From IMG/VR virus record IMGVR_UViG_3300018080_008418: a stretch of DNA of 64,000 nucleotides; one strand, written 5' to 3'. The translations under genes were made by a program, and so were the position numbers. How positions within the stretch are numbered: position 1 is the first letter of the stretch; the number at the start of each line of letters is the position of its first letter. The notes under the pieces are model-generated. The model saw nothing but the letters and a program-made list of their open reading frames with translations, was not told where the DNA came from and ran no database searches. The DNA is from a virus. Shown here piece by piece: positions 585 through 33,938 of this stretch.

Positions 585-664
585 CCTTGACAAATAAGGA
601 GTTCGGCCTACAATATAGTAGTGGCCCGCCGACGTTTACAATTGAGCGTCGGTGGGCTACAATA
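585..664 (+). promoter_or_regulatory. tandem sigma70-like promoters (TTGACA-N16-TACAAT; TTTACA-N17-TACAAT) upstream of tmRNA
   Basis: near-consensus -35/-10 hexamers with 16-17 bp spacing, immediately upstream of tmRNA 5' end. Confidence 0.5.
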
Positions 665-675
665 CTAGCAGATTC

Positions 676-1052
676 GGGGGGCGCTCCGGTTTCGACTGGG
701 TAGGCTGAACCTGAGTTGCGTGTCGTGGTTGGTCAGCAGGCCACGTAAAAAGCCGACCAAACAATTTTACTTGTCGAAACACCGACATACCGCATGGCTG
801 CGTAAGCTGTGCCGGGTTTAGGAAGCTCGCCCAAGGCGTCCGACAACCCGTCGCAAATTTGGGATAGCCCTGGTTCATGTGGCTACGGCCTGGGTGAAAC
901 AGGTTGTCACTGGTGGACCCGCCGAGTGCGGCCCTGTCGATCTGAACCTTGGTTCACTGTGGTTTGGGTCGGCGAGATTGAACAGTGAACTACACACGTA
1001 GATGCTTGGCGGATGTTACCGCAGGACAGGGGTTCGATTCCCCTCGCCTCCA
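676..1052 (+). ncRNA. ssrA: tmRNA (ssrA)
   Basis: 5' GGGGGCGCUCCGGUUUCGACUGGG resembles tmRNA 5' end; 3' GGACAGGGGUUCGAUUCCCCUCGCCUCCA T-arm/acceptor; acceptor pairs 7 bp with G3:U70; internal tag ORF GCC-GAC...ATGGCTGCGTAA (ADQTILLVETPTYRMAA*); no encoded CCA (ACTT trailer). Confidence 0.65.
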
Positions 1053-1107
1053 CTTGGCTATGCGAAGCTTGCTTTTGCCAGGGCCGCTCCGCATGCCAAA
1101 TTCACGA

Positions 1108-1143
1108 AGCCGCACGGCCTTAGGGCCGTGCGGCTTTTTCTTT
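1108..1143 (+). terminator. rho-independent terminator after tmRNA
   Basis: AGCCGCACGGCC-TTAG-GGCCGTGCGGCT hairpin followed by TTTTTCTTT. Confidence 0.6.
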
Positions 1144-1158
1144 ATCCCACCGCTGGGA

Positions 1159-1186
1159 TTGACATTTTGCCATTTCTGCCTAGAAT
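1159..1186 (+). promoter_or_regulatory. sigma70-like promoter TTGACA-N16-TAGAAT
   Basis: consensus -35, 16-bp spacer, TAGAAT -10. Confidence 0.45.
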
Positions 1187-1373
1187 ATAGTAGCTCTTCG
1201 AGTTCCCCAGGGAACGAGCACGAAGAGGTTTCAGTTGCGGCCCGCCGAGGAGGCTCGCAGGGCACAATCCCACTTCAGCCTGCCGTCACCTCGGTGGGTT
1301 TTTCAAAAAACACAAACGGATTGTACGGGGCACGCCCCGATTATTCCCCCCACCTTGTTTCATGGAGGATAAC

Positions 1374-1789: not shown

Positions 1790-4435
1790 GTGTGTTCAAT
1801 GAAGGAGAACACTGTGAACCCCGAAGGAAAAAGAGAACTTGCATTACCTCCCGGCTCCTACGCCTACATTCAGGATGAAAGCAAGGGGCCAATCCGAGTC
1901 CACGTTGGTGCCAGCGTCATCAACCAAACCGCCCAAGATCGTCCGTGCGTGTACGATCATCAAACACGCCAGTTCAAGCCGGTCGAATTGCATCAGTCCG
2001 TTCGACAGTTCACTCTCGCCGGGGAAGGCGACTACATTGTTCTCGAAAACCCGGCTGCGACCGGGGCGTTCCCCAAAGAAGGAACGACGGAGAACGCCCC
2101 CGAATTGCTGATGGGTCGGAAGCTCAATATTCCGGGGCCGGTCAGCTTCGCCCTGTATCCGGGCCAATGGGCCACGCAGGTGGCGGGCCACAATCTGCGG
2201 TCGAATGAATTCCTCATCGTCCGAATCTACAACGAGGAAGAAGCCGCCAAGAACTGGTCGAAGGCCGTTCTGAAAACTAAAACCGGCGACAGCGAATCGA
2301 CCGAAGAAGAAACGGAAGCGGTCACCAAGTCGGCGGATGAATTGAATTTGACGATGGGCAAGCTGCTCATTATCAAGGGGACGGATGTCAGCTTTTACAT
2401 TCCGCCCACCGGCGTCGAAGTTCTGAAAGACCCGAACACGGGTCAATACGTTCGTCAGGCCGTGACGTTGGAACGCTTGGAATACTGCATCCTCATTGAC
2501 GAGGACGGCAACAAGCGTTACGAGCGGGGACCGCAGGTGGTGTTCCCCGAGCCCACGGAAGAATTCTTCACGAAGGGCGGCAAGCGAAAGTTCACTGCCA
2601 TCGAGTTGAATGAGATCCAAGGCATTCACATCAAGGTCATCGCTCCGTACAACGATGATGGCAGCGCCGTGGATGACCCCGAGAAGGCCGACCACAAGGA
2701 AGGCGACGAGCTTTTCATCAAGGGCGATGAGTGCGCCATCTACTTCCCCCGCCCCGAACACAGCATCATTCGCTACGGTGAGGGGGATCAAAAACAGGAC
2801 AAGCATTACGCTACGGCCATCCCCGTGGGCGAAGGTCGCTACGTGATGAATCGTCGGGACGGCACGATCAAAACGGTGGTCGGCCCGAAGATGCTTCTGC
2901 CCGATCCTCGCTACGAGGTCATCGTTCGCCGCATTTTGTCGGACAAGGAAGTTGATCTTTGGTATCCCGGCAACACCGAAGCCCTGCAATACAACCGACA
3001 ACTTCGTGCGGCCAGTGCTTCGGAAACGGCGCAGTTCGTTTCGGACGATGAACTGCGGGCGAAGCATGCAATTCGTACTCGTGGTGCCACTCGTGGCCTG
3101 GGGGTGCAGACTATCGGTGCAGTGGCCGCTGACATGGCCGACTTCGAGGGCTACGAAGAAGCCGGTTCGGGCATGGTTGGCGAAGAATTCGAGCGACGTT
3201 CCCGACACACCAAGCCTCGCACGCTCACGCTCGACACGAAGTTCGAGGGTGTGCCGAAGATCCAGGTGTGGACGGGTTACGCCGTGATGCTCGTCAAGGC
3301 CAACGGTGACCGTCGTGTTGAAATCGGTCCCAAGCGGATCTTGTTGGACTACGACGAGACGTTGGAAGTTCTGGAGTTGTCCACGGGCAAACCCAAGAAC
3401 ACCGACAACCTGAAGAAGACGGTGTACCTGCGGACCAAGAATAACAAGGTCAGCGACATCGTGATGGTCGAGACCAAAGACCACGCTCCGATCTCCGTGA
3501 AGATGTCCTACAAGGTCAACTTCGAGAACGAACCCACGCTTTGGTTTGACAGCGACAACTACGTCAAGCTGCTTTGCGATCACGTGCGGAGCATGCTCAA
3601 AGGTTCCGTTCGCAAGACCGAAGTCGAAACCTTTTACGGTGACGGCGAAGCCATCGTTCGGGACATCATTCTCGGTAAGAAAGTGCCTCCTTCGGGCGCA
3701 CCTGAGGGTCTCAAGGCCAAGGCCACCCGCCCATTCCTCATCTTTGAGGAGAACGGCATGAAGGTGGCGGACGTTGAAATCCTCGGCATCAAGATCGAGG
3801 ACGATAGGATCGCCCAACTGCTGTCTGGCGCTCAACGTCGCACGGTGGAGCAGAACATCGAACTGAACCGTGCCGAAAAAGATCTCAAGGTGCGAAAGCG
3901 CAAGGAAGAGATCGATCAAGAAATTGCCGAGGCAGAACAGAAGACCGTCAGCCTCAAGAACAAGCTGCAAATCCTCGGCATCGAGGAAACGCAACAGGTT
4001 CAAGCGGCAGCGGCCACCTCCAACCAGCAACGGGAAGAACAGGCCAAGTTGTTGGCAGATCTTCAACAGGCCGTGCAACAAGTGGCGTTTGATGCCGATT
4101 TGGCTCGTCGGAAAGATAACGCTGCCCAAGTGCAGGCCGAAGAGGAAGCCAAGCTTGCCACCGACAAGGCTCGCCTGGAGGCCGAGACGAAGGCAGTCGT
4201 GGACAAGTTTGCCGCAGCCCAACCGGCTTTCGCCGAGTGCATCCTGGCCTTGTCGAATGCCGAAACCCTCACCAAGATCGCTCAGGCGCACAGCGTCGAA
4301 ACCCTCATTGGGGGCGAGAGCGTCGTAGACGCCCTCAAGAAGATCTTCGGTGACGGTGTGTTGCAGGACGGTCTTGGCAACATCACCAACCGGATGAGAG
4401 GCGGCAAGCCCGCCATGGCCAGCCCCAGGGATTAA
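1790..4435 (+). CDS. Major vault protein (MVP) homolog
   Basis: 881 aa; N-terminal repeats resemble vault repeats (LALPPGSYAYIQDESKGPIRVHVG vs MVP IRIPPYHYIHVLD..VSRVEVGP); shoulder-like segment ELSTGKPKN..VMVETKDHAPISVKMSYKVNFE resembles MVP [31 protein letters not shown]; long C-terminal coiled coil. Start uncertain (ATG 1790/1799 or GTG 1815 after AAGGAG). Confidence 0.65.
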   Translation: MCSMKENTVNPEGKRELALPPGSYAYIQDESKGPIRVHVGASVINQTAQDRPCVYDHQTRQFKPVELHQSVRQFTLAGEGDYIVLENPAATGAFPKEGTTENAPELLMGRKLNIPGPVSFALYPGQWATQVAGHNLRSNEFLIVRIYNEEEAAKNWSKAVLKTKTGDSESTEEETEAVTKSADELNLTMGKLLIIKGTDVSFYIPPTGVEVLKDPNTGQYVRQAVTLERLEYCILIDEDGNKRYERGPQVVFPEPTEEFFTKGGKRKFTAIELNEIQGIHIKVIAPYNDDGSAVDDPEKADHKEGDELFIKGDECAIYFPRPEHSIIRYGEGDQKQDKHYATAIPVGEGRYVMNRRDGTIKTVVGPKMLLPDPRYEVIVRRILSDKEVDLWYPGNTEALQYNRQLRAASASETAQFVSDDELRAKHAIRTRGATRGLGVQTIGAVAADMADFEGYEEAGSGMVGEEFERRSRHTKPRTLTLDTKFEGVPKIQVWTGYAVMLVKANGDRRVEIGPKRILLDYDETLEVLELSTGKPKNTDNLKKTVYLRTKNNKVSDIVMVETKDHAPISVKMSYKVNFENEPTLWFDSDNYVKLLCDHVRSMLKGSVRKTEVETFYGDGEAIVRDIILGKKVPPSGAPEGLKAKATRPFLIFEENGMKVADVEILGIKIEDDRIAQLLSGAQRRTVEQNIELNRAEKDLKVRKRKEEIDQEIAEAEQKTVSLKNKLQILGIEETQQVQAAAATSNQQREEQAKLLADLQQAVQQVAFDADLARRKDNAAQVQAEEEAKLATDKARLEAETKAVVDKFAAAQPAFAECILALSNAETLTKIAQAHSVETLIGGESVVDALKKIFGDGVLQDGLGNITNRMRGGKPAMASPRD

Positions 4436-7189: not shown

Positions 7190-7429
7190 GTGAGCATATC
7201 TGAGCGGGTGATCGATGTGATTGCCCAGCAAATAGGGGTGGAGCCCGAGAACGTAAGCAGGTCTTCCACCATGCAATCGTTGGGGGCCGATTCCCTGGAC
7301 ACAGTGGAAGCGGTGATGGAACTTGAGGAAGAGTTCGACATCAGCATCTCCGACGATGCCTTTTCCGACATTGCATGCACCACCGTGGGAGACATCATCG
7401 CCTTTGTTGAGGATAAAACAAACCGATGA
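7190..7429 (+). CDS. acpP: acyl carrier protein
   Basis: 79 aa; LGADSLDTVE phosphopantetheine-attachment motif; GTG start after AAGGAAAA. Confidence 0.8.
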   Translation: MSISERVIDVIAQQIGVEPENVSRSSTMQSLGADSLDTVEAVMELEEEFDISISDDAFSDIACTTVGDIIAFVEDKTNR

Positions 7430-7932
7430 AAGTGATTTCTGGCGGGCAAACCGGAGCGGACTTCGGTGGGCTTGCAGCAGCTTACCAGTTTGGTTTGGAG
7501 ACTGGCGGCTGGATGCCACCGGGCTTTATGACTGAGGCTGGATCGAAGCCCCATTGGGCAAAAAAGTTTGGACTCAAGACAATTGCAACAAGTGGGCATC
7601 CGGTTGCGGATTATGTCGCTCGAACTTACGCCAATGCACGAGACTCCGATGCGACAATTCGATTCGCAACCCACTTCGATTCCAAGGGCGAGAAATGCAC
7701 TCTCCGTGCAATCAAAAAATTCGACAAGCCCTATTGTGATGTCAACCCTGACAACCCACCACCTGTTTCGGATGTGGTGGATTGGATAATCCAAAATGAC
7801 GTAAAGGTTCTGAATGTAGCGGGAAATCGTGAGAGCAAAAGTCCTGGCCTGGGAAGATTCGTAATCGGTTTCCTGTCCCAAGTATTCCAAGAAATGGGCC
7901 ACAAGCAAAAGGAGGAGTTCCGTGGAAAGTAA
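7426..7932 (+). CDS. SLOG-fold protein (YpsA / MoCo-carrier-like)
   Basis: N-terminal ISGGQTGADFGGLAAA matches the GGQTG(A/V)D signature of the MoCo-carrier/SLOG family. Confidence 0.5.
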   Translation: MKVISGGQTGADFGGLAAAYQFGLETGGWMPPGFMTEAGSKPHWAKKFGLKTIATSGHPVADYVARTYANARDSDATIRFATHFDSKGEKCTLRAIKKFDKPYCDVNPDNPPPVSDVVDWIIQNDVKVLNVAGNRESKSPGLGRFVIGFLSQVFQEMGHKQKEEFRGK

Positions 7933-9523
7933 CATGCCAAAATGGTTGGTTCTCGGTGCCATTGTGATCGTGTTTGTGCTGTTTGTTCCGCTCTTCGTGT
8001 ACAACGAGTGCCGGATCAACGTGCCGTCGTATCACCAAGCCGTACTCATCAAGCGCACCGGCAAAGATTTGCCGAACAGCCTGGAAATTGCCCCCGACGC
8101 TTCGTACAAGGGCGTCCAGGCAGAAGTGCTCGGTGAAGGTCGCTACTATTACAACCCGTACAGTTGGGATTGGGTTGTGGTTCCGCAGATTGAAATTCCC
8201 GAAGGCAAGCTGGGTGTTCTCACTCGGCTGTTTGGCGACCAGCCCAAGGATGGCGGCATTATTGCCTGGAACGAAAATGAGAAAGGCATTGTGCCCGATG
8301 TTCTCCGTCCCGGTCGTTATGCGATCAACGCCAAGTTGGAGGGCACGCCCGCCCGAGAGCAGGGCGACAGCTATCTTTATCACGTCGAGTTGTTCACGCC
8401 CGTTACGATCCCGGCAGGTTACAAAGGTATTGTGACGAACCTCAGTGCCGAAATGCCCGAAGACCCCAACGTTCTTTTGGTCGAGAACGGCAAGCGTGGC
8501 ATTCAGAAGGAAACACTCGCACCGGCCACGTACTATGTGAATCCGTACATCACACGGATCAACCTCCTTGATTGCCGCAGCCAGCGATTCAACCTGACTG
8601 GGGCCACCACGGATAAAGCCGCAGAAAGGTTTGGCTTCCCGACGAAGGATGGGTTCTGGGTTACCCTCGAAGGCATCATTGAATTCAGGGTCAAGCCCGA
8701 AGAGGCGGCGTCCGTTTTTGTGACTTATAACGACGCAACCAATGGCGATGCCATCGACGAGGAGATCATTTCTAAGATCATCCTGCCCAACGCCAGAAGT
8801 TATTGCCGCCTGCGAGGATCGAACCAGTCCGGTAAGGATTTCATCAGCGGCGATGCCCGAGTGGCCTTTCAAGAGGATTTCGAGAAGAACATTTTTGCCA
8901 CCTGTGATGCACAGGGGGTTGAAATCGTGCAGGCGTTGGTGACGAGAATTCGACCGCCCGAGAAGATTGCCGATCCCGTGCGTAAGCGTGAAATCGCCGT
9001 GCGAGAAGAAGAGCAGTTCGGTCGGCAGATTGAGCAACAACTTTCAGAACAACAGTTGAAAACTGAACAGATGTTGGTCGTTCAGAAGCAAGAATTGGTG
9101 GATGCCGAACGTCAGGTGGTCGAACAGGTCACTCAGGCCAATCAGGAAAAAGAGGTCGCCCTGGTTGAAGCCAATAAGCGATTGGCCGTTGCCCAGCTTC
9201 AACTGGATGCGGCTCAAGACAAGGCTGCCGCTGTTCTCGCCAAGGGCAAGGCCGAGGCCGACGTTATTGCGTTTGACAATGAGGCAACGGCTGCCGAATG
9301 GAAGAAGGCCATCGAGGCGTTCAGTGGCGACGGTGACGAATATGCCCGGTTTATTTTGTGGCAGAAGTTGGCCCCGTCCTTCCAAGACTTGATGGTCAAT
9401 ACGGCGGACTCGCCACTCATGGAGATTTTCAAGGCTTACGATGGCAGCGGCCCGAGGGCAGCGTCCCCGCCCCCGCCCCGAACCTCGCCTTCTCCCGTCG
9501 CCGTAACTCCGTCCAACAATTAA
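7922..9523 (+). CDS. SPFH/band-7 (flotillin-like) membrane protein 1
   Basis: N-terminal TM helix, PHB-like core, long E/Q/A-rich coiled coil, Pro-rich tail. Confidence 0.55.
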   Translation: MESNMPKWLVLGAIVIVFVLFVPLFVYNECRINVPSYHQAVLIKRTGKDLPNSLEIAPDASYKGVQAEVLGEGRYYYNPYSWDWVVVPQIEIPEGKLGVLTRLFGDQPKDGGIIAWNENEKGIVPDVLRPGRYAINAKLEGTPAREQGDSYLYHVELFTPVTIPAGYKGIVTNLSAEMPEDPNVLLVENGKRGIQKETLAPATYYVNPYITRINLLDCRSQRFNLTGATTDKAAERFGFPTKDGFWVTLEGIIEFRVKPEEAASVFVTYNDATNGDAIDEEIISKIILPNARSYCRLRGSNQSGKDFISGDARVAFQEDFEKNIFATCDAQGVEIVQALVTRIRPPEKIADPVRKREIAVREEEQFGRQIEQQLSEQQLKTEQMLVVQKQELVDAERQVVEQVTQANQEKEVALVEANKRLAVAQLQLDAAQDKAAAVLAKGKAEADVIAFDNEATAAEWKKAIEAFSGDGDEYARFILWQKLAPSFQDLMVNTADSPLMEIFKAYDGSGPRAASPPPPRTSPSPVAVTPSNN

Positions 9524-9569
9524 ACACGCCCTCGTCGTTCAGTGAACGCAAGAAAGGAGACTTTCCAAC

Positions 9570-28934: not shown

Positions 28935-30473
28935 ATGCCCAATGTTGCAAACTTTCTTATCGAGAGAATTTCCAATGCCGAGGTTCAACATGTCTTTGGA
29001 TGCGCAGACAGGTTGAGCGACACGTTCTTCAAGAACTTTGATGATAAACTAGAATGCATTTGCACCACAGATGAAAACCATGCGGGGATAGCCGCAGATG
29101 CATATTCAAGGGCCAAGGGAGTGGGTTGTGCATGCATATCCGGACAGCGTGGGGCCCTACAAATCTCCAGTGCTGTTGCATGTGCTTATGCGGAGCACTC
29201 TCCTGTTATTGTCGTTGGCTGCATGCCAGATGGTTTAAGCCAGACTGGTGTTTTCAAAAAAATTACATGTGCTCGCACGAGTCTCGCATCTCCCAACACA
29301 GCGGGTTTTGAGATAGATCGTGTGTTGGAAGAGATGCACTATCATAAGCAGCCGGTTTATATTGAATTGCTTGAAAGCGTGGTGAATAAGCCAATAGCCT
29401 ATGATGTCTACAAGCAGGGCACTCCTACAGCACCCGAGACTGTCCAAAAGAATCTCGATGAAGCTTTAGAAGAAGTGGGTGTCATGTTGGCCCAATCAAA
29501 ACGCCCTCTTATTTGGGCGGGTGTTTTAGTGGCTCGCTTCAGCTTGACGAAAGAACTGGAGAAGTTTGTGGCCAAGACGGGCGTGCCAGTGGTGACCACT
29601 CCTTTGAGCAAGTCGGCCATTAGCGAATTGCATGCTTCTTCTGTTGGCGTGTGTATGGAGAAAGCCACACCAGATCACGTTCGAGAGAAGATCGAAGAGT
29701 CGGATTGTGTAATCGTTTTGGGTTCGGTTGACGGCCTGCGGTTCGTAGATCCTGACAAAAGCGTTGTTGCTTCTGTGGGGCATGTGAAGGTGAAAAATCA
29801 TATCTATCCCTCGGTTGGCTTTCAAGATTTTGTGCGGGCTCTGTTGAAGAGGGAGGATTTGCCCGTCATTACCCCTCAGAGAAGCAGCAAGGTGCGTCCG
29901 TCGTTTACGCCTCAGGATGGTCCAATCACAACGCAGCGATTTTTTGAGAAGATAAATTCCATCTTGAATCCCGATTTGGCGGTTGTCGTAGATTGCGGTG
30001 ACAGCCTGTTTGGCGCAATTGATTTGGTGACAGATCATTACCATTTCTTGTGCCCGGCTCATTATAATAACAGCGGTTTCGCCATTCCCGGTGCCTTGGG
30101 GGCACAGTTGGCGCAACCCAAAGTCCGTCCACTTGTGTTGGTGGGCGATGGCTCATTTCAGAAATCATGCAATGAATTGGGAACAATCGCTGGATTGGGT
30201 CTCAATCCCATTGTCTTGGTCCTGAATAACCGCAGCCATGCTAGTTGCAGGCTGTGGAGTAAAAAGGATGTTCCAGAAATCGCCGAATGGAGCTATCATG
30301 ATATGATTCATGTTGTGGGCGGTGACGGCATCAAGGTACAAGAAGAAAAACATTTGGAGACAGCATTGAGTACAGCGTTACTAGACAAACGCAATCTTCA
30401 CATCATCAACGTGATTGTGGACAAGAAGGATATTTCTCCCGCACTAAAGAGGGCGACAGAAGCCGATGATTAA
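28935..30473 (+). CDS. thiamine-pyrophosphate-dependent decarboxylase (pyruvate/indolepyruvate decarboxylase family)
   Basis: N-terminal Pyr domain like PDC; TPP motif LVLVGDGSFQ...LVLNN. Confidence 0.7.
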   Translation: MPNVANFLIERISNAEVQHVFGCADRLSDTFFKNFDDKLECICTTDENHAGIAADAYSRAKGVGCACISGQRGALQISSAVACAYAEHSPVIVVGCMPDGLSQTGVFKKITCARTSLASPNTAGFEIDRVLEEMHYHKQPVYIELLESVVNKPIAYDVYKQGTPTAPETVQKNLDEALEEVGVMLAQSKRPLIWAGVLVARFSLTKELEKFVAKTGVPVVTTPLSKSAISELHASSVGVCMEKATPDHVREKIEESDCVIVLGSVDGLRFVDPDKSVVASVGHVKVKNHIYPSVGFQDFVRALLKREDLPVITPQRSSKVRPSFTPQDGPITTQRFFEKINSILNPDLAVVVDCGDSLFGAIDLVTDHYHFLCPAHYNNSGFAIPGALGAQLAQPKVRPLVLVGDGSFQKSCNELGTIAGLGLNPIVLVLNNRSHASCRLWSKKDVPEIAEWSYHDMIHVVGGDGIKVQEEKHLETALSTALLDKRNLHIINVIVDKKDISPALKRATEADD

Positions 30474-31017
30474 GAAAAAGAACAAGAAGTTCGGCAGCGA
30501 TCAAAAGAAGTATCCCGTTAGAGTCAATGAAAGGATTCGCTGGTCACCAGTGAGGGTGGTGGATGCCAATGGGGAAAATTTGGGTGTTATTCCCACAAAG
30601 GATGCCCAAGCGATGGCACGAAAGCAAGGGCTTGATTTGGTAGAGGTGGCTCCCAATAGTCGCCCGCCAGTTTGTCGCATTATGGATTATGGGAAGTTCA
30701 AGTACGAACAAAGCATTCGGGAGAAGAAGCAGAGTCAGGGGAACGCCCCAAAGATGAAAGAACTCAAACTCTCCCCGGCTATCGATTCCCATGATCTAGA
30801 GACGAAGTTGGGGATGGCCAAGAAGTTCTTGGAAGCAGGCCATAAGGTCCACTTCCGCCTTCAATTCCGCAAGCGACAAATAGCTCATAAGGACCGAGGC
30901 TTTGATGTAATGAAGAAGGTGGTTGAGGAGTTGGGTGACATAGGAAATGCCACTCAAAAGCCTCAACTAGAGGGCAGGGTGATAACCTGTATGATTGAGC
31001 CGATGAAAGCCAAATGA
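30466..31017 (+). CDS. infC: translation initiation factor IF-3
   Basis: alignable along full length with bacterial IF3 (VRV.D..G..LGV....A...A...GLDLVE..PN..PPVCRIMDYGKFKYE...). Confidence 0.85.
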   Translation: MIKKKNKKFGSDQKKYPVRVNERIRWSPVRVVDANGENLGVIPTKDAQAMARKQGLDLVEVAPNSRPPVCRIMDYGKFKYEQSIREKKQSQGNAPKMKELKLSPAIDSHDLETKLGMAKKFLEAGHKVHFRLQFRKRQIAHKDRGFDVMKKVVEELGDIGNATQKPQLEGRVITCMIEPMKAK

Positions 31018-32529: not shown

Positions 32530-32886
32530 ATGAGAAAGGTAGTGGATTGTAACCCGGTGGGGTTTACCATTTTAGTGGAGCTTTTGACATCGCAGGAAGT
32601 GTTGGGGACAAGAATTCACGTGGGCGGTGACCAGAAGGTGGGCGCACCGCAGGCGTATATCAGGAAGATTGGTCCGTTTGTCAAAGAGGATAAGGATTAC
32701 AACTTCGAGGTGGGTGACAGGGTTCTGCTCTCTGGCAACTACACCCCTGTCCCGGACATGGAAGGCAAAGGCGAAAACGAAAGAACGTTCGGTATCGTCG
32801 AGCCACATGCCATCAAGGCCGTCTTGTCAGAAGGCGAAGAAGTACCCGAACTAGCAATTGCCCAGAACAAGCTCATTGTTGAATAA
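32530..32886 (+). CDS. GroES-like co-chaperonin (tentative)
   Basis: ~118 aa, beta-rich, VGDRVL motif and position directly upstream of dnaJ; weak. Confidence 0.3.
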   Translation: MRKVVDCNPVGFTILVELLTSQEVLGTRIHVGGDQKVGAPQAYIRKIGPFVKEDKDYNFEVGDRVLLSGNYTPVPDMEGKGENERTFGIVEPHAIKAVLSEGEEVPELAIAQNKLIVE

Positions 32887-33938
32887 TGGACTACTATGAC
32901 ATCCTGGGTGTTAAGAAAGATGCCACGCAGGATGACATCAGTAAGGCGTATCGTCAGAAGGCGATGCGATACCACCCAGATGTCAGCAAGGAAGAGGGAG
33001 CTTCCGAGAAGTTCAAGGAAATTGCTGAGGCGTATGAAGTTCTTAACGACCCGCAGAAAAGAGATCAGTATGACCGCTATGGAACGGTAGGCGCTGCCGG
33101 TCCATCTGCGGGTGGCTTTGATCCGTTTGAGATATTCAACCGGATGCGTCGTGGCCACGGGCGCAGTCGCAAGAGAGGTAGGGACAGGCTTGTTGAAGCC
33201 GAGCTTTCTTTTGAGGAGGCTGTGGCTGGTTGTAACAAAGACATCAAGGTTACCTACAAGGATGCCTGTGAGAAGTGCAAAGGGACCGGTGTCAAGACAT
33301 GGAAGAATTGTGAGACCTGCCAAGGCCGAGGCCGTCAAACCATTCAACAGAGTCCATTCATTCTTGAAGTAGGCTGCACAGCTTGCGGAGGGCATGGACG
33401 GATGCCCGATGAGAAATGTGCAGAATGTAATGGTGATGGTCTAAAAAAGGCAAGGGAAGAAACGGTTACGGTTAAAATTCCCGCAGGTGTTGATACCGGC
33501 ATGCAGGTGCGACTGCTCGGTCTCGGCGATTTCGATTCTACCAATTCTGTACGTGGCGACCTCTACGTCACTCTTAAAATCCAACCACATGAATTTTTCA
33601 CCAGGGAAGGTGTGGATTTGTGGTGTCGTGTTTACGTTCCATACACCAAGTTGGTTCTCGGAACTAAGTTGGATGTTCCCACTTTGGATAAAGTGGTGGA
33701 AGTGAAAATTCCACCAAATACATCGCCGGGCACGAAGCTGCGGTTGAAAGGCCATGGATTGCCGGATATTCATCGTCCAAACCGCCTCGGTGACATCATG
33801 ATTATTGTGGATTTGGACATGCCAAAAGCCAAAGGGGATTACAAAAAGAAGTTGAGAGAACTATCTACATTGGAGGATGAATTCCTCTCGCCACAGCGAG
33901 AGGAATTTAATAACTATGTGGAGCGTATAAGACGATGA
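32886..33938 (+). CDS. dnaJ: DnaJ (Hsp40) co-chaperone
   Basis: J-domain YYDILGV...HPD; four CxxCxGxG zinc-finger repeats. Confidence 0.8.
   Translation: MDYYDILGVKKDATQDDISKAYRQKAMRYHPDVSKEEGASEKFKEIAEAYEVLNDPQKRDQYDRYGTVGAAGPSAGGFDPFEIFNRMRRGHGRSRKRGRDRLVEAELSFEEAVAGCNKDIKVTYKDACEKCKGTGVKTWKNCETCQGRGRQTIQQSPFILEVGCTACGGHGRMPDEKCAECNGDGLKKAREETVTVKIPAGVDTGMQVRLLGLGDFDSTNSVRGDLYVTLKIQPHEFFTREGVDLWCRVYVPYTKLVLGTKLDVPTLDKVVEVKIPPNTSPGTKLRLKGHGLPDIHRPNRLGDIMIIVDLDMPKAKGDYKKKLRELSTLEDEFLSPQREEFNNYVERIRR

Follow-up and report, generated by a model that had tools for sequence, protein, structure and literature searches.

Near its start, the 64-kb window (the whole stretch of 64,000 nucleotides that we analysed) carries a one-piece tmRNA gene with its own promoter and terminator, followed 735 nt downstream by a gene for a homologue of the major vault protein (MVP). 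Most of the window consists of ORFans. The genes that could be identified include a virion structural protein (phrog_1645, E 4e-78), a set of replication and nucleic-acid genes (a T4 Rnl1-like RNA ligase, a DnaE-type polymerase and an NAD-dependent ligase), and genes for a SAM lyase, PhoH, a sigma-70-like factor, dCMP deaminase, IF3, DnaJ and tRNAs. The best phage match of the DnaE-type polymerase, at 41% identity, is to a 595-kb uncultured huge phage. The DNA derives from an 83.8-kb contig, ENA ERZ27256796 k141_1002656. A first, sequence-only reading of this DNA had called the tmRNA phage-borne, and the virion protein, Rnl1-like ligase, DnaE, SAM lyase and IF3 place it within phage DNA as claimed. 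The features of the locus are as follows.

587-614, plus strand: sigma-70-type promoter P1, TTGACA, 16-nt spacer, TACAAT (11 of 12 consensus matches)
621-660, plus strand: 5' leader hairpin of 18 bp (RNAfold dG -33.4 kcal/mol, z -5.7)
635-663, plus strand: weaker promoter-like site, TTTACA-17-TACAAT (10 of 12 consensus matches), inside the leader hairpin
677-1052, plus strand: one-piece tmRNA gene, mature 5' end to discriminator A (full RF00023 model; ARAGORN 677-1053 after in-silico change)
677-683, plus strand: acceptor 5' strand, GGGGGCG (sequence, covariance-model alignment)
684-696, plus strand: D-loop analogue, CUCCGGUUUCGAC (sequence, covariance-model alignment)
724-760, plus strand: pseudoknot PK1 (complementarity in the sequence, in register with the Rfam PK1 columns)
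761-772, plus strand: single-stranded stretch of 12 nt between PK1 and the resume codon
768-772, plus strand: frame-setting bases U(-5) A(-4) C U U, with CUU as the -1 triplet (sequence)
773-805, plus strand: tag frame GUC GAA ACA CCG ACA UAC CGC AUG GCU GCG UAA (covariance-model alignment)
792-798 and 806-812, plus strand: helix 5, GCAUGGC/GCUGUGC, 7 bp (RNAfold of 760-825, Rfam alignment)
813-973, plus strand: PK2-PK4 domain, approximate limits (Rfam alignment, lower posterior probability)
813-850, 869-921 and 936-973, plus strand: PK2, PK3 and PK4, approximate (Rfam alignment, lower posterior probability)
993-1023, plus strand: helix 2, 3' strand (covariance-model alignment, high posterior probability)
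1027-1044, plus strand: T arm, loop UUCGAUU (covariance-model alignment, high posterior probability)
1045-1051, plus strand: acceptor 3' strand, CGCCUCC (CGCCTCC in DNA; covariance-model alignment, high posterior probability)
1053-1055, plus strand: CUU where CCA would be (sequence)
1054-1099, plus strand: 3' trailer hairpin, UUGGCUAUGCG...CGCAUGCCAA (fold)
1106-1143, plus strand: intrinsic terminator, 14-bp GC-rich stem followed by a T run (terminator scan, fold)

The identification of the gene rests on an Rfam cmscan match of 677-1055(+) to the full RF00023 model, positions 1-374, with 130.1 bits against a gathering score of 47 (E=1.3e-50). This full-length match bears out the earlier view of the RNA as a bona fide tmRNA. 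The acceptor stem is formed by 7 bp between 677-683 and 1045-1051 and contains the G3:U70 alanine identity pair that had been proposed, as G679:U1049. With A1052 as the discriminator (A73) and a T arm of the GGUUCGAnUCC type, the tRNA-like domain (TLD) is of the alanine type. The limits first given for the gene, 676-1052, are exact at the discriminator A and one base early at the 5' end, which lies at 677. The D-loop analogue contains, within GGUUUCGAC (688-696), a predicted SmpB-contact sequence of the UUCGAC type with its GAC at 694-696; in Helicobacter pylori SsrA, the SmpB site that was mutated is G19-A20-C21 (PMC2584231). Read from the sequence, PK1 comprises pairings of CGUGG (724-728) with CCACG (741-745) and of UUGGUC (729-734) with GACCAA (755-760), and the stop codon of the tag frame sits in the 7-nt loop of helix 5.

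The encoded tag is VETPTYRMAA, ten codons from a GUC (Val) resume codon at 773-775 to a UAA stop at 803-805, which with the tmRNA-borne alanine included gives the peptide A-VETPTYRMAA. U768 and A769 occupy positions -5 and -4 relative to the resume codon. The counterpart of the latter in Escherichia coli, A86, is nearly invariant and sets the frame, and certain mutants of the -1 triplet are inactive in that species (PMC2481249); a Val resume codon, GUA, works in H. pylori (PMC2584231). We place the resume codon at 773 rather than 776 because this puts A at -4; GAA 776 was rejected as a resume codon, since it would put U there instead. The other frames yielded neither a tag-like nor a canonical tag peptide. 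The covariance model, matched over its full length, thus returns the tag frame that the sequence-only reading had proposed, with its ...YRMAA ending.

ARAGORN, the other check that had been suggested, did not call the natural gene, even at an 80% score threshold, but called the same frame once the resume region was altered in silico. Changing GTC to GCC led to a call at 677-1053 with the tag AETPTYRMAA, and changing the -1 triplet from CTT to GTC led to a call over the same interval with VETPTYRMAA. No call was restored by ATG to CTG, CGC to GCC or CTT to CCA. We attribute the miss to the resume region, with its Val codon after CUU, and not to the MAA ending or the absent CCA. Two independent arguments, the A at -4 and the ARAGORN rescue, agree with the covariance model on where translation would resume. 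Two full-length tmRNAs from IMG/VR, L015 and L038 (tag GEVSTLALAA), are also missed by ARAGORN.

The promoter upstream of the tmRNA belongs to a class, TTGAC-N17/18-TANAAT, with four sites in the 64-kb window against about 0.14 expected. The four lie at the tmRNA, at 1159, at the MVP gene and at the tRNA array, and TTCGGCCTAYAAT occurs both in the tmRNA promoter and in that of the array (59549-59576). None of 200 shuffled sequences folds as well as the 5' leader hairpin at 621-660. Downstream, the gene ends in ...CCTCC-A-CTTGGCT, so that CCA is not encoded and CTT follows A1052, as had been noted, and the fold of 1050-1145 that covers the trailer hairpin and terminator has a dG of -50.7 (z -6.3).

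The same trailer had been noticed on the interrupted tRNAs of the window, in contrast to the encoded CCA of the contiguous ones, and their 3' ends show this to be correct over a stretch of 3-6 nt. The interrupted tRNAs end in ..CCCGTCC-A-CTTG, ..CTCCCGC-A-CTTG, ..CCCCTCC-G-CTTTG and ..ACCCGGC-A-CTTTTG, whereas the contiguous tRNAs end in ..GTGTTA-C-CCA, ..ATTGTTG-A-CCA and ..CAGTTCC-G-CCA. In the tRNA array at 59.7-61.1 kb, tRNA-like 3' ends are followed by CTTG(G). Here the sequence belongs to a module of about 45 nt, consisting of ACUUGG, a hairpin P2, the motif CCCUAC-N7-RCWUAC and then AAAC, with ACTTGG as its invariant 5' edge. In an alignment of 10 copies, a two-helix structure accounts for pairing in 88% of cells, compared with 32-55% in slid controls; seven of its pairs show compensatory changes, and none of 500 shuffles reaches the observed score. 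A covariance model of the module, run in cmsearch with filters off, finds nine copies at 59678-61149, and the module also occurs in the tRNA arrays of two further IMG/VR phages. It has no match in Rfam even at E<=5. The possibility that it is an HDV-like theta ribozyme was set aside on reading rather than by a formal test, as the expected P1 pairing appears to be absent.

We considered whether the tmRNA trailer is a further copy of this module. With filters off, the module model finds nothing at E<=10 near the trailer (1040-1110), and this candidate was rejected: only ACUUGG(CU) is common to the two. A link between the tmRNA and the array module is thus not demonstrable. ACTTGG trailers follow tRNA or tmRNA 3' ends in 25 other IMG/VR contigs. 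The CCA-less end of the tmRNA is most simply explained by trimming to the discriminator and subsequent addition of CCA, as also holds for most theta-ribozyme-linked phage tRNAs, only 4.5% of which encode CCA (PMC10879173). The structured module at 59.7-61.1 kb, which both interrupts the tRNAs and flanks them, is more unusual than the tmRNA.

The sequence-only reading regarded both the tag ending and the trailer as atypical. For comparison we used 212 loci from IMG/VR and GTDB species genomes that share the 5' or 3' tRNA-like sequence of this tmRNA, with tags as given by ARAGORN, of which 103 are unique. In this set, which is not random, being picked by similarity to the tmRNA ends and through ARAGORN and so biased against odd resume codons, 50 of the 103 tags end in LAA, 12 in MAA, 7 in VAA, 7 in AAA, 6 in IAA and 21 in other residues. 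The ...YRMAA ending stands as read, but MAA is not unusual; it is the second-commonest ending after LAA. Bacterial examples are AEDYSYAMAA in Fibrobacteria, GEESFAMAA in Bacteriovoracaceae and ANNNNAFAARMAA in a Deltaproteobacteria MAG, the last a chromosomal tag that ends in RMAA. A literature search on tag peptides such as YAMAA returned no relevant match.

Nor does the trailer set this gene apart. Among the 83 one-piece tmRNAs of the same selected set, CCA is encoded in 49 and absent from 34 (41%), and CTT is the commonest non-CCA trailer, with 10 cases; an encoded CCA is therefore no defining trait of the family. These counts suffice to class both MAA and A-CTT as ordinary variants. Rarer are the GUC resume codon, the CUU -1 triplet and the Arg at -4: within the ARAGORN-biased tag sample the first residue is Ala in 77, Gly in 17, Asp in 5, Val in 3 and Glu in 1 of the 103 tags, and RMAA ends a single one of them. 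The tag VETPTYRMAA is uncommon, yet has precedent. The Val resume codon and the CUU triplet had gone unremarked in the sequence-only reading.

We found no close relative of the gene in IMG/VR, JGI metagenomes or GTDB genomes at the sensitivity of pattern scans. The exact 5' 20-mer has one match in IMG/VR, an unrelated TLD-only RNA, and matches in 58 GTDB genomes, all at most about 60% identical overall; the back-translated tag pattern and the 5' 23-mer have no matches in JGI metagenomes. With blastn, the locus has no match among INPHARED phages, and a 40-nt query from the 3' TLD detects similarity at the level of the T arm only, for example to phiCbK-like and S-CAM1 tmRNAs. None of the fetched tmRNAs exceeds about 60% global identity to this gene.

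A further comparison comes from the neighbouring MVP gene, whose product is about 50% identical to Myxococcota proteins. Scans of IMG/VR with single MVP or SPFH proteins returned nothing; a scan with an alignment of MVP homologues returned 16 loci. One of these belongs to a phage-like element of 498.6 kb, IMGVR_UViG_3300020429_000529 (L259/L262), which occurs at about the same size in 11 sample blocks. Its readable locus of 22.7 kb consists mainly of ORFans with scattered tRNAs, and contains a one-piece tmRNA on the same strand as the MVP gene and 1.3 kb from it, with the tag ANSNTLRMAA and an A-CTT trailer. The R-M-A-A of the two tags is coded by the identical 12 nt, CCGCAUGGCUGC. In other respects the two loci differ: the L259 tmRNA is 57% identical overall to the one described here and has an Ala (GCC) resume codon, the order of the genes is reversed, with MVP upstream of the tmRNA, and no genes common to the 22.7-kb locus and our window were found besides the tmRNA and MVP.

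Because RMAA and CTT are each minority traits in our sample, their joint recurrence beside MVP is unlikely to be due to chance, and it suggests either that the two tmRNAs descend from a common ancestor or that the phages share a host lineage and copy its degron. The adjacency of tmRNA and MVP is not general, since in the AT-rich huge phages LR756500 and LR756501, which also encode MVP, the region within 12 kb of that gene lacks a tmRNA. The nearest relatives of the MVP protein itself (66% and 61% identity) lie on 3-kb contigs, on which there is no tmRNA. As to the host, the MVP gene hints at Myxococcota-like bacteria, and partial similarity of the tmRNA hints at Verrucomicrobiales; neither signal is strong, and the IF3 homologues gave no informative one.

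The interpretation that we favour, with a probability of roughly 70%, is that the locus encodes a functional, standard one-piece tmRNA that would act as a working rescuer, supplementing the host system during infection. We favour it because all sequence elements needed for trans-translation are intact: the G3:U70 pair with the A discriminator, the T loop, UUCGAC, PK1, U-5 and A-4 followed by a G-initial codon, a frame of ten codons with Ala-Ala at its end, and a stop codon within the loop of helix 5. Counting against it are the uncommon CUU triplet and GUC codon, the low posterior probability of the PK2-PK4 alignment and the lack of a close relative in the scans. In the proposed pathway, transcription would start at the gene's own strong sigma-70-type promoter, which shares its class with the promoter of the tRNA array. 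RNase P would remove the 5' leader, host nucleases would trim the 3' trailer to A1052, and a CCA-adding enzyme would supply CCA, after which AlaRS could charge the tmRNA by way of G3:U70. Together with host SmpB and EF-Tu, the charged RNA would enter stalled ribosomes, and translation would resume at GUC 773 to add A-VETPTYRMAA. Ribosomes would thus be freed in the course of infection, and the truncated proteins would be marked for AAA+ proteolysis by the ssrA-like ...YRMAA-COOH degron. Neither smpB nor a CCA-adding enzyme was found among the approximately 60 ORFs scanned, and for this reason we expect the tmRNA to need factors from the host or genes that lie beyond the window. It may form part of a translation toolkit along with the IF3, DnaJ, tRNAs and RNA ligase encoded in the window.

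How the tag would be read by host proteases bears directly on the suggestion, made in the sequence-only reading, that a variant ending could redirect tagged proteins away from ClpXP. A screen of random C-terminal tags in E. coli yielded the ClpXP-dependent consensus [L/F/Y/W]-[L/A/R]-L-A-A; Tyr at its first position and Arg at its second favour ClpXP-dependent proteolysis, and the residues depleted at the third do not include Met (PMC10862746). By sequence comparison, YRMAA agrees with this consensus at four of five positions, the fifth being a conservative replacement of Leu by Met, and VETPTYRMAA retains a C-terminal Ala-Ala-COOH preceded by a hydrophobic residue at -3. With MAA and RMAA also present in chromosomal bacterial tags, the suggestion finds no support, and escape of VETPTYRMAA from ClpXP appears unlikely on this comparison. 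The recurrence of RMAA in a phage-like element and a bacterial MAG argues that it may represent a working type of degron.

Put as a specificity switch, the same idea would have RMAA and the residues upstream of it steer tagged proteins off ClpXP, or off an SspB-type adaptor, towards another protease or towards stability, to the benefit of the phage. Changes in a tag can switch the protease, as in Mycoplasma, where the ssrA tag is degraded by Lon. VETPTY is unlike adaptor-binding sequences of the AANDENY type, Arg at -4 is rare in our sample (RMAA in 1 of 103 tags), and RMAA appears again in a second phage-like element. We nevertheless regard such a switch as very unlikely, since the critical Ala-Ala-COOH is kept, Tyr and Arg at the first two positions favour ClpXP-dependent loss in the E. 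coli screen, where Met is not depleted at the third (PMC10862746), MAA is the second-commonest ending among bacterial and viral-contig tags, and RMAA itself is used on a Deltaproteobacteria MAG chromosome. We give slightly less credence still to the notion that the xRMAA tags mark a separate tmRNA lineage of some MVP-encoding huge phages, with the RMAA end and the resume region tuned to a particular adaptor or protease. If it were true, host proteins tagged by the phage would meet a fate other than that conferred by the host's own tag, and the repeated adjacency to MVP could mean that the RNA is tied to a vault-like particle.

Two further accounts dispense with tagging as the purpose of the gene. 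As a decoy or competitor, the RNA would sequester host SmpB, AlaRS or EF-Tu, or displace the host tmRNA by competition, and so dampen trans-translation. Such a role has been proposed for phage RNAs made of a TLD only. TLD-only tmRNA-like genes are known in phage DS6A (PMC4131195), and we encountered others at five loci of this analysis; the non-consensus -1 triplet would also suit a decoy. This account seems improbable to us, as a pure decoy would have no need of the mRNA-like domain, the predicted PK1-PK4, the A at -4, the open frame and the stop in the helix 5 loop, all of which are kept. The gene could instead be a captured host ssrA with no adaptive role, either acquired recently as a passenger when an element excised imprecisely at an ssrA attachment site, or now in decay. 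The 3' ends of ssrA genes are common integration sites, many IMG/VR matches to the 3' TLD are partial copies, and the adjoining MVP gene looks host-derived. Here, too, the odds appear low: the gene is of full length with no decayed element, neither an integrase nor smpB was identified among the neighbouring ORFs scanned, and the gene shares its promoter class with the phage tRNA array. Recent capture is further opposed by the identity of at most about 60% to every fetched bacterial tmRNA. A decoy and a passively captured gene are therefore possible but less likely than a working rescuer, given that the mRNA-like domain is whole and the sequence is far from those of the fetched bacterial tmRNAs.

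In architecture, the RNA resembles one-piece bacterial SsrA, as in E. coli and H. pylori, in its alanine-type domain with G3:U70, in PK1, U-5/A-4 and the predicted PK2-PK4, and in a short startless frame that ends in Ala-Ala with its stop in the helix 5 loop. A Val resume codon is also found in H. pylori SsrA, as GUA where GUC is used here. It differs from bacterial SsrA in the Arg -4/Met -3 tag, the CUU -1 triplet, the lack of CCA, the phage locus and the array-type promoter. As a degron, the tag would share with the ClpXP-recognised ssrA tag its Ala-Ala-COOH after a hydrophobic residue; it differs from that of E. coli in having Met for Leu at -3 and upstream residues that do not resemble SspB-binding ones. 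Nothing in this tmRNA challenges the current understanding of trans-translation.

Among phages, carriers of tmRNA genes include the mycobacteriophage Bxz1 group, Bacillus phage G, Caulobacter phiCbK-like phages, Synechococcus phage S-CAM1 and the huge phages described by Al-Shayeb et al. (2020). We re-found the two-piece tmRNAs of phiCbK and S-CAM1 with their variant tags; these are permuted, in contrast to the one-piece gene described here, and that of S-CAM1 likewise lacks an encoded CCA (A-CTC). Phage-borne tmRNAs are documented (PMC4131195; PMC7162821), and the present gene is like them in being complete and in lying in a large phage alongside tRNAs and translation factors, and unlike them in having no nucleotide match to INPHARED phages beyond the T arm. 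The survey of huge phages used ARAGORN as its detector (PMC7162821), which misses this gene. Surveys based on ARAGORN can therefore miss phage tmRNAs with non-Ala resume codons, and the frequency of such genes may be underestimated. That RMAA is found in two giant elements with an MVP gene, and again in a Deltaproteobacteria MAG, provides a small lead on host range or degron specificity, and the gene itself is a divergent addition to the tmRNAs of large phages.

The tRNA array of this phage is organised around a structured module of about 45 nt, and the open reading frame that follows the array has a counterpart beside a module-bearing array elsewhere:

59640-61270, plus strand: tRNA array with the structured module, which also occurs in L105 and L106 (two IMG/VR phages)
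59652, 60051 and 60263: acceptor 5' strands preceding the module (GGACGGG, GCGGGAG and GGGGGGG, respectively)
61348-62913, plus strand: 521-aa open reading frame, immediately 3' of the array
L106, 8398-9705, reverse complement: homologue of the 521-aa open reading frame

The layout of the module is conserved, running from ACUUGG through a hairpin, P2, to CCCUAC-N7-RCWUAC and then AAAC, and covariation supports two of its helices. Nine copies lie in the window, with further ones in the tRNA arrays of L105 and L106, and no Rfam family matches it. In some tRNAs the module sits 3' of the 7-nt acceptor 5' strand; the contiguous tRNAs, those with an encoded CCA, are flanked by permuted module halves whose arms, GUCCGUCC and GGACGGAC, are able to pair. 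One possibility is that the module is a new element for processing or splicing. The 521-aa protein is a candidate for its partner: it contains no Pfam domain, matches phrog_850 ('RNA-binding protein') weakly, and has a homologue of 65% identity in the equivalent place beside a module-bearing array on IMG/VR contig 3300018080_004888 (L106).

At the other end of the window, the tmRNA is followed by a promoter and then by a gene for a major vault protein (MVP):

1159-1305, plus strand: promoter and structured stretch that separate the tmRNA from the MVP gene
1790-4435, plus strand: MVP homologue with MVP shoulder and Vault_3 domains

The promoter (1159-1186, TTGACA-16-TAGAAT) is strong, and the roughly 110 nt 3' of it are highly structured (dG -50 for 1190-1312), closing with a terminator-like hairpin and T run at 1283-1297. 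For this stretch, a role as small RNA or as leader is possible. The vault protein is about 50% identical to proteins from Myxococcota MAGs and 44-46% identical to homologues from two huge phages, LR756500 and LR756501. Homologues occur in 16 IMG/VR contigs, and the gene adjoins a tmRNA in two places, the window and the 498-kb phage-like element L259. Other genes in the window include:

7426-11177, plus strand: circularly permuted YpsA (SLOG) protein, then a pair of SPFH/Band-7 paralogues (each about 530 aa), the group lying directly 5' of a DnaE-type polymerase gene
30466-31017, 32886-33938, 45174-45716 and 41376-42047, plus strand: translation initiation factor IF3, full DnaJ, sigma-70 region 2 protein and PhoH (coordinates in this order), a translation and takeover toolkit typical for very large phages
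39184-40908, minus strand: T4 Rnl1-like RNA ligase, matching phrog_562 (E 5e-41) and, weakly, Pfam RNA_ligase

IMG/VR viral contigs hold further tmRNA-like genes, some of them scarcely more than a tRNA-like domain (70-140 nt):

L015, 628-984, and L038, 1364-1720: full-length tmRNAs that score 102 bits against Rfam and encode the tag GEVSTLALAA
L040, 1914-1983; L017, 11474-11613; L227, L231 and L238: miniature tmRNA-like genes

ARAGORN calls neither the L015 nor the L038 tmRNA, and its blind spot therefore extends beyond Val resume codons. The L040 and L017 miniatures, the two that were scanned, score above the Rfam threshold, and the miniature genes resemble the RNA of phage DS6A, which consists of the tRNA-like domain only.

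An Rnl1-like RNA ligase and CCA-less, interrupted tRNAs coexist in the window phage. RNA ligase and the CCA-adding enzyme are similarly enriched in theta-ribozyme phages (PMC10879173).
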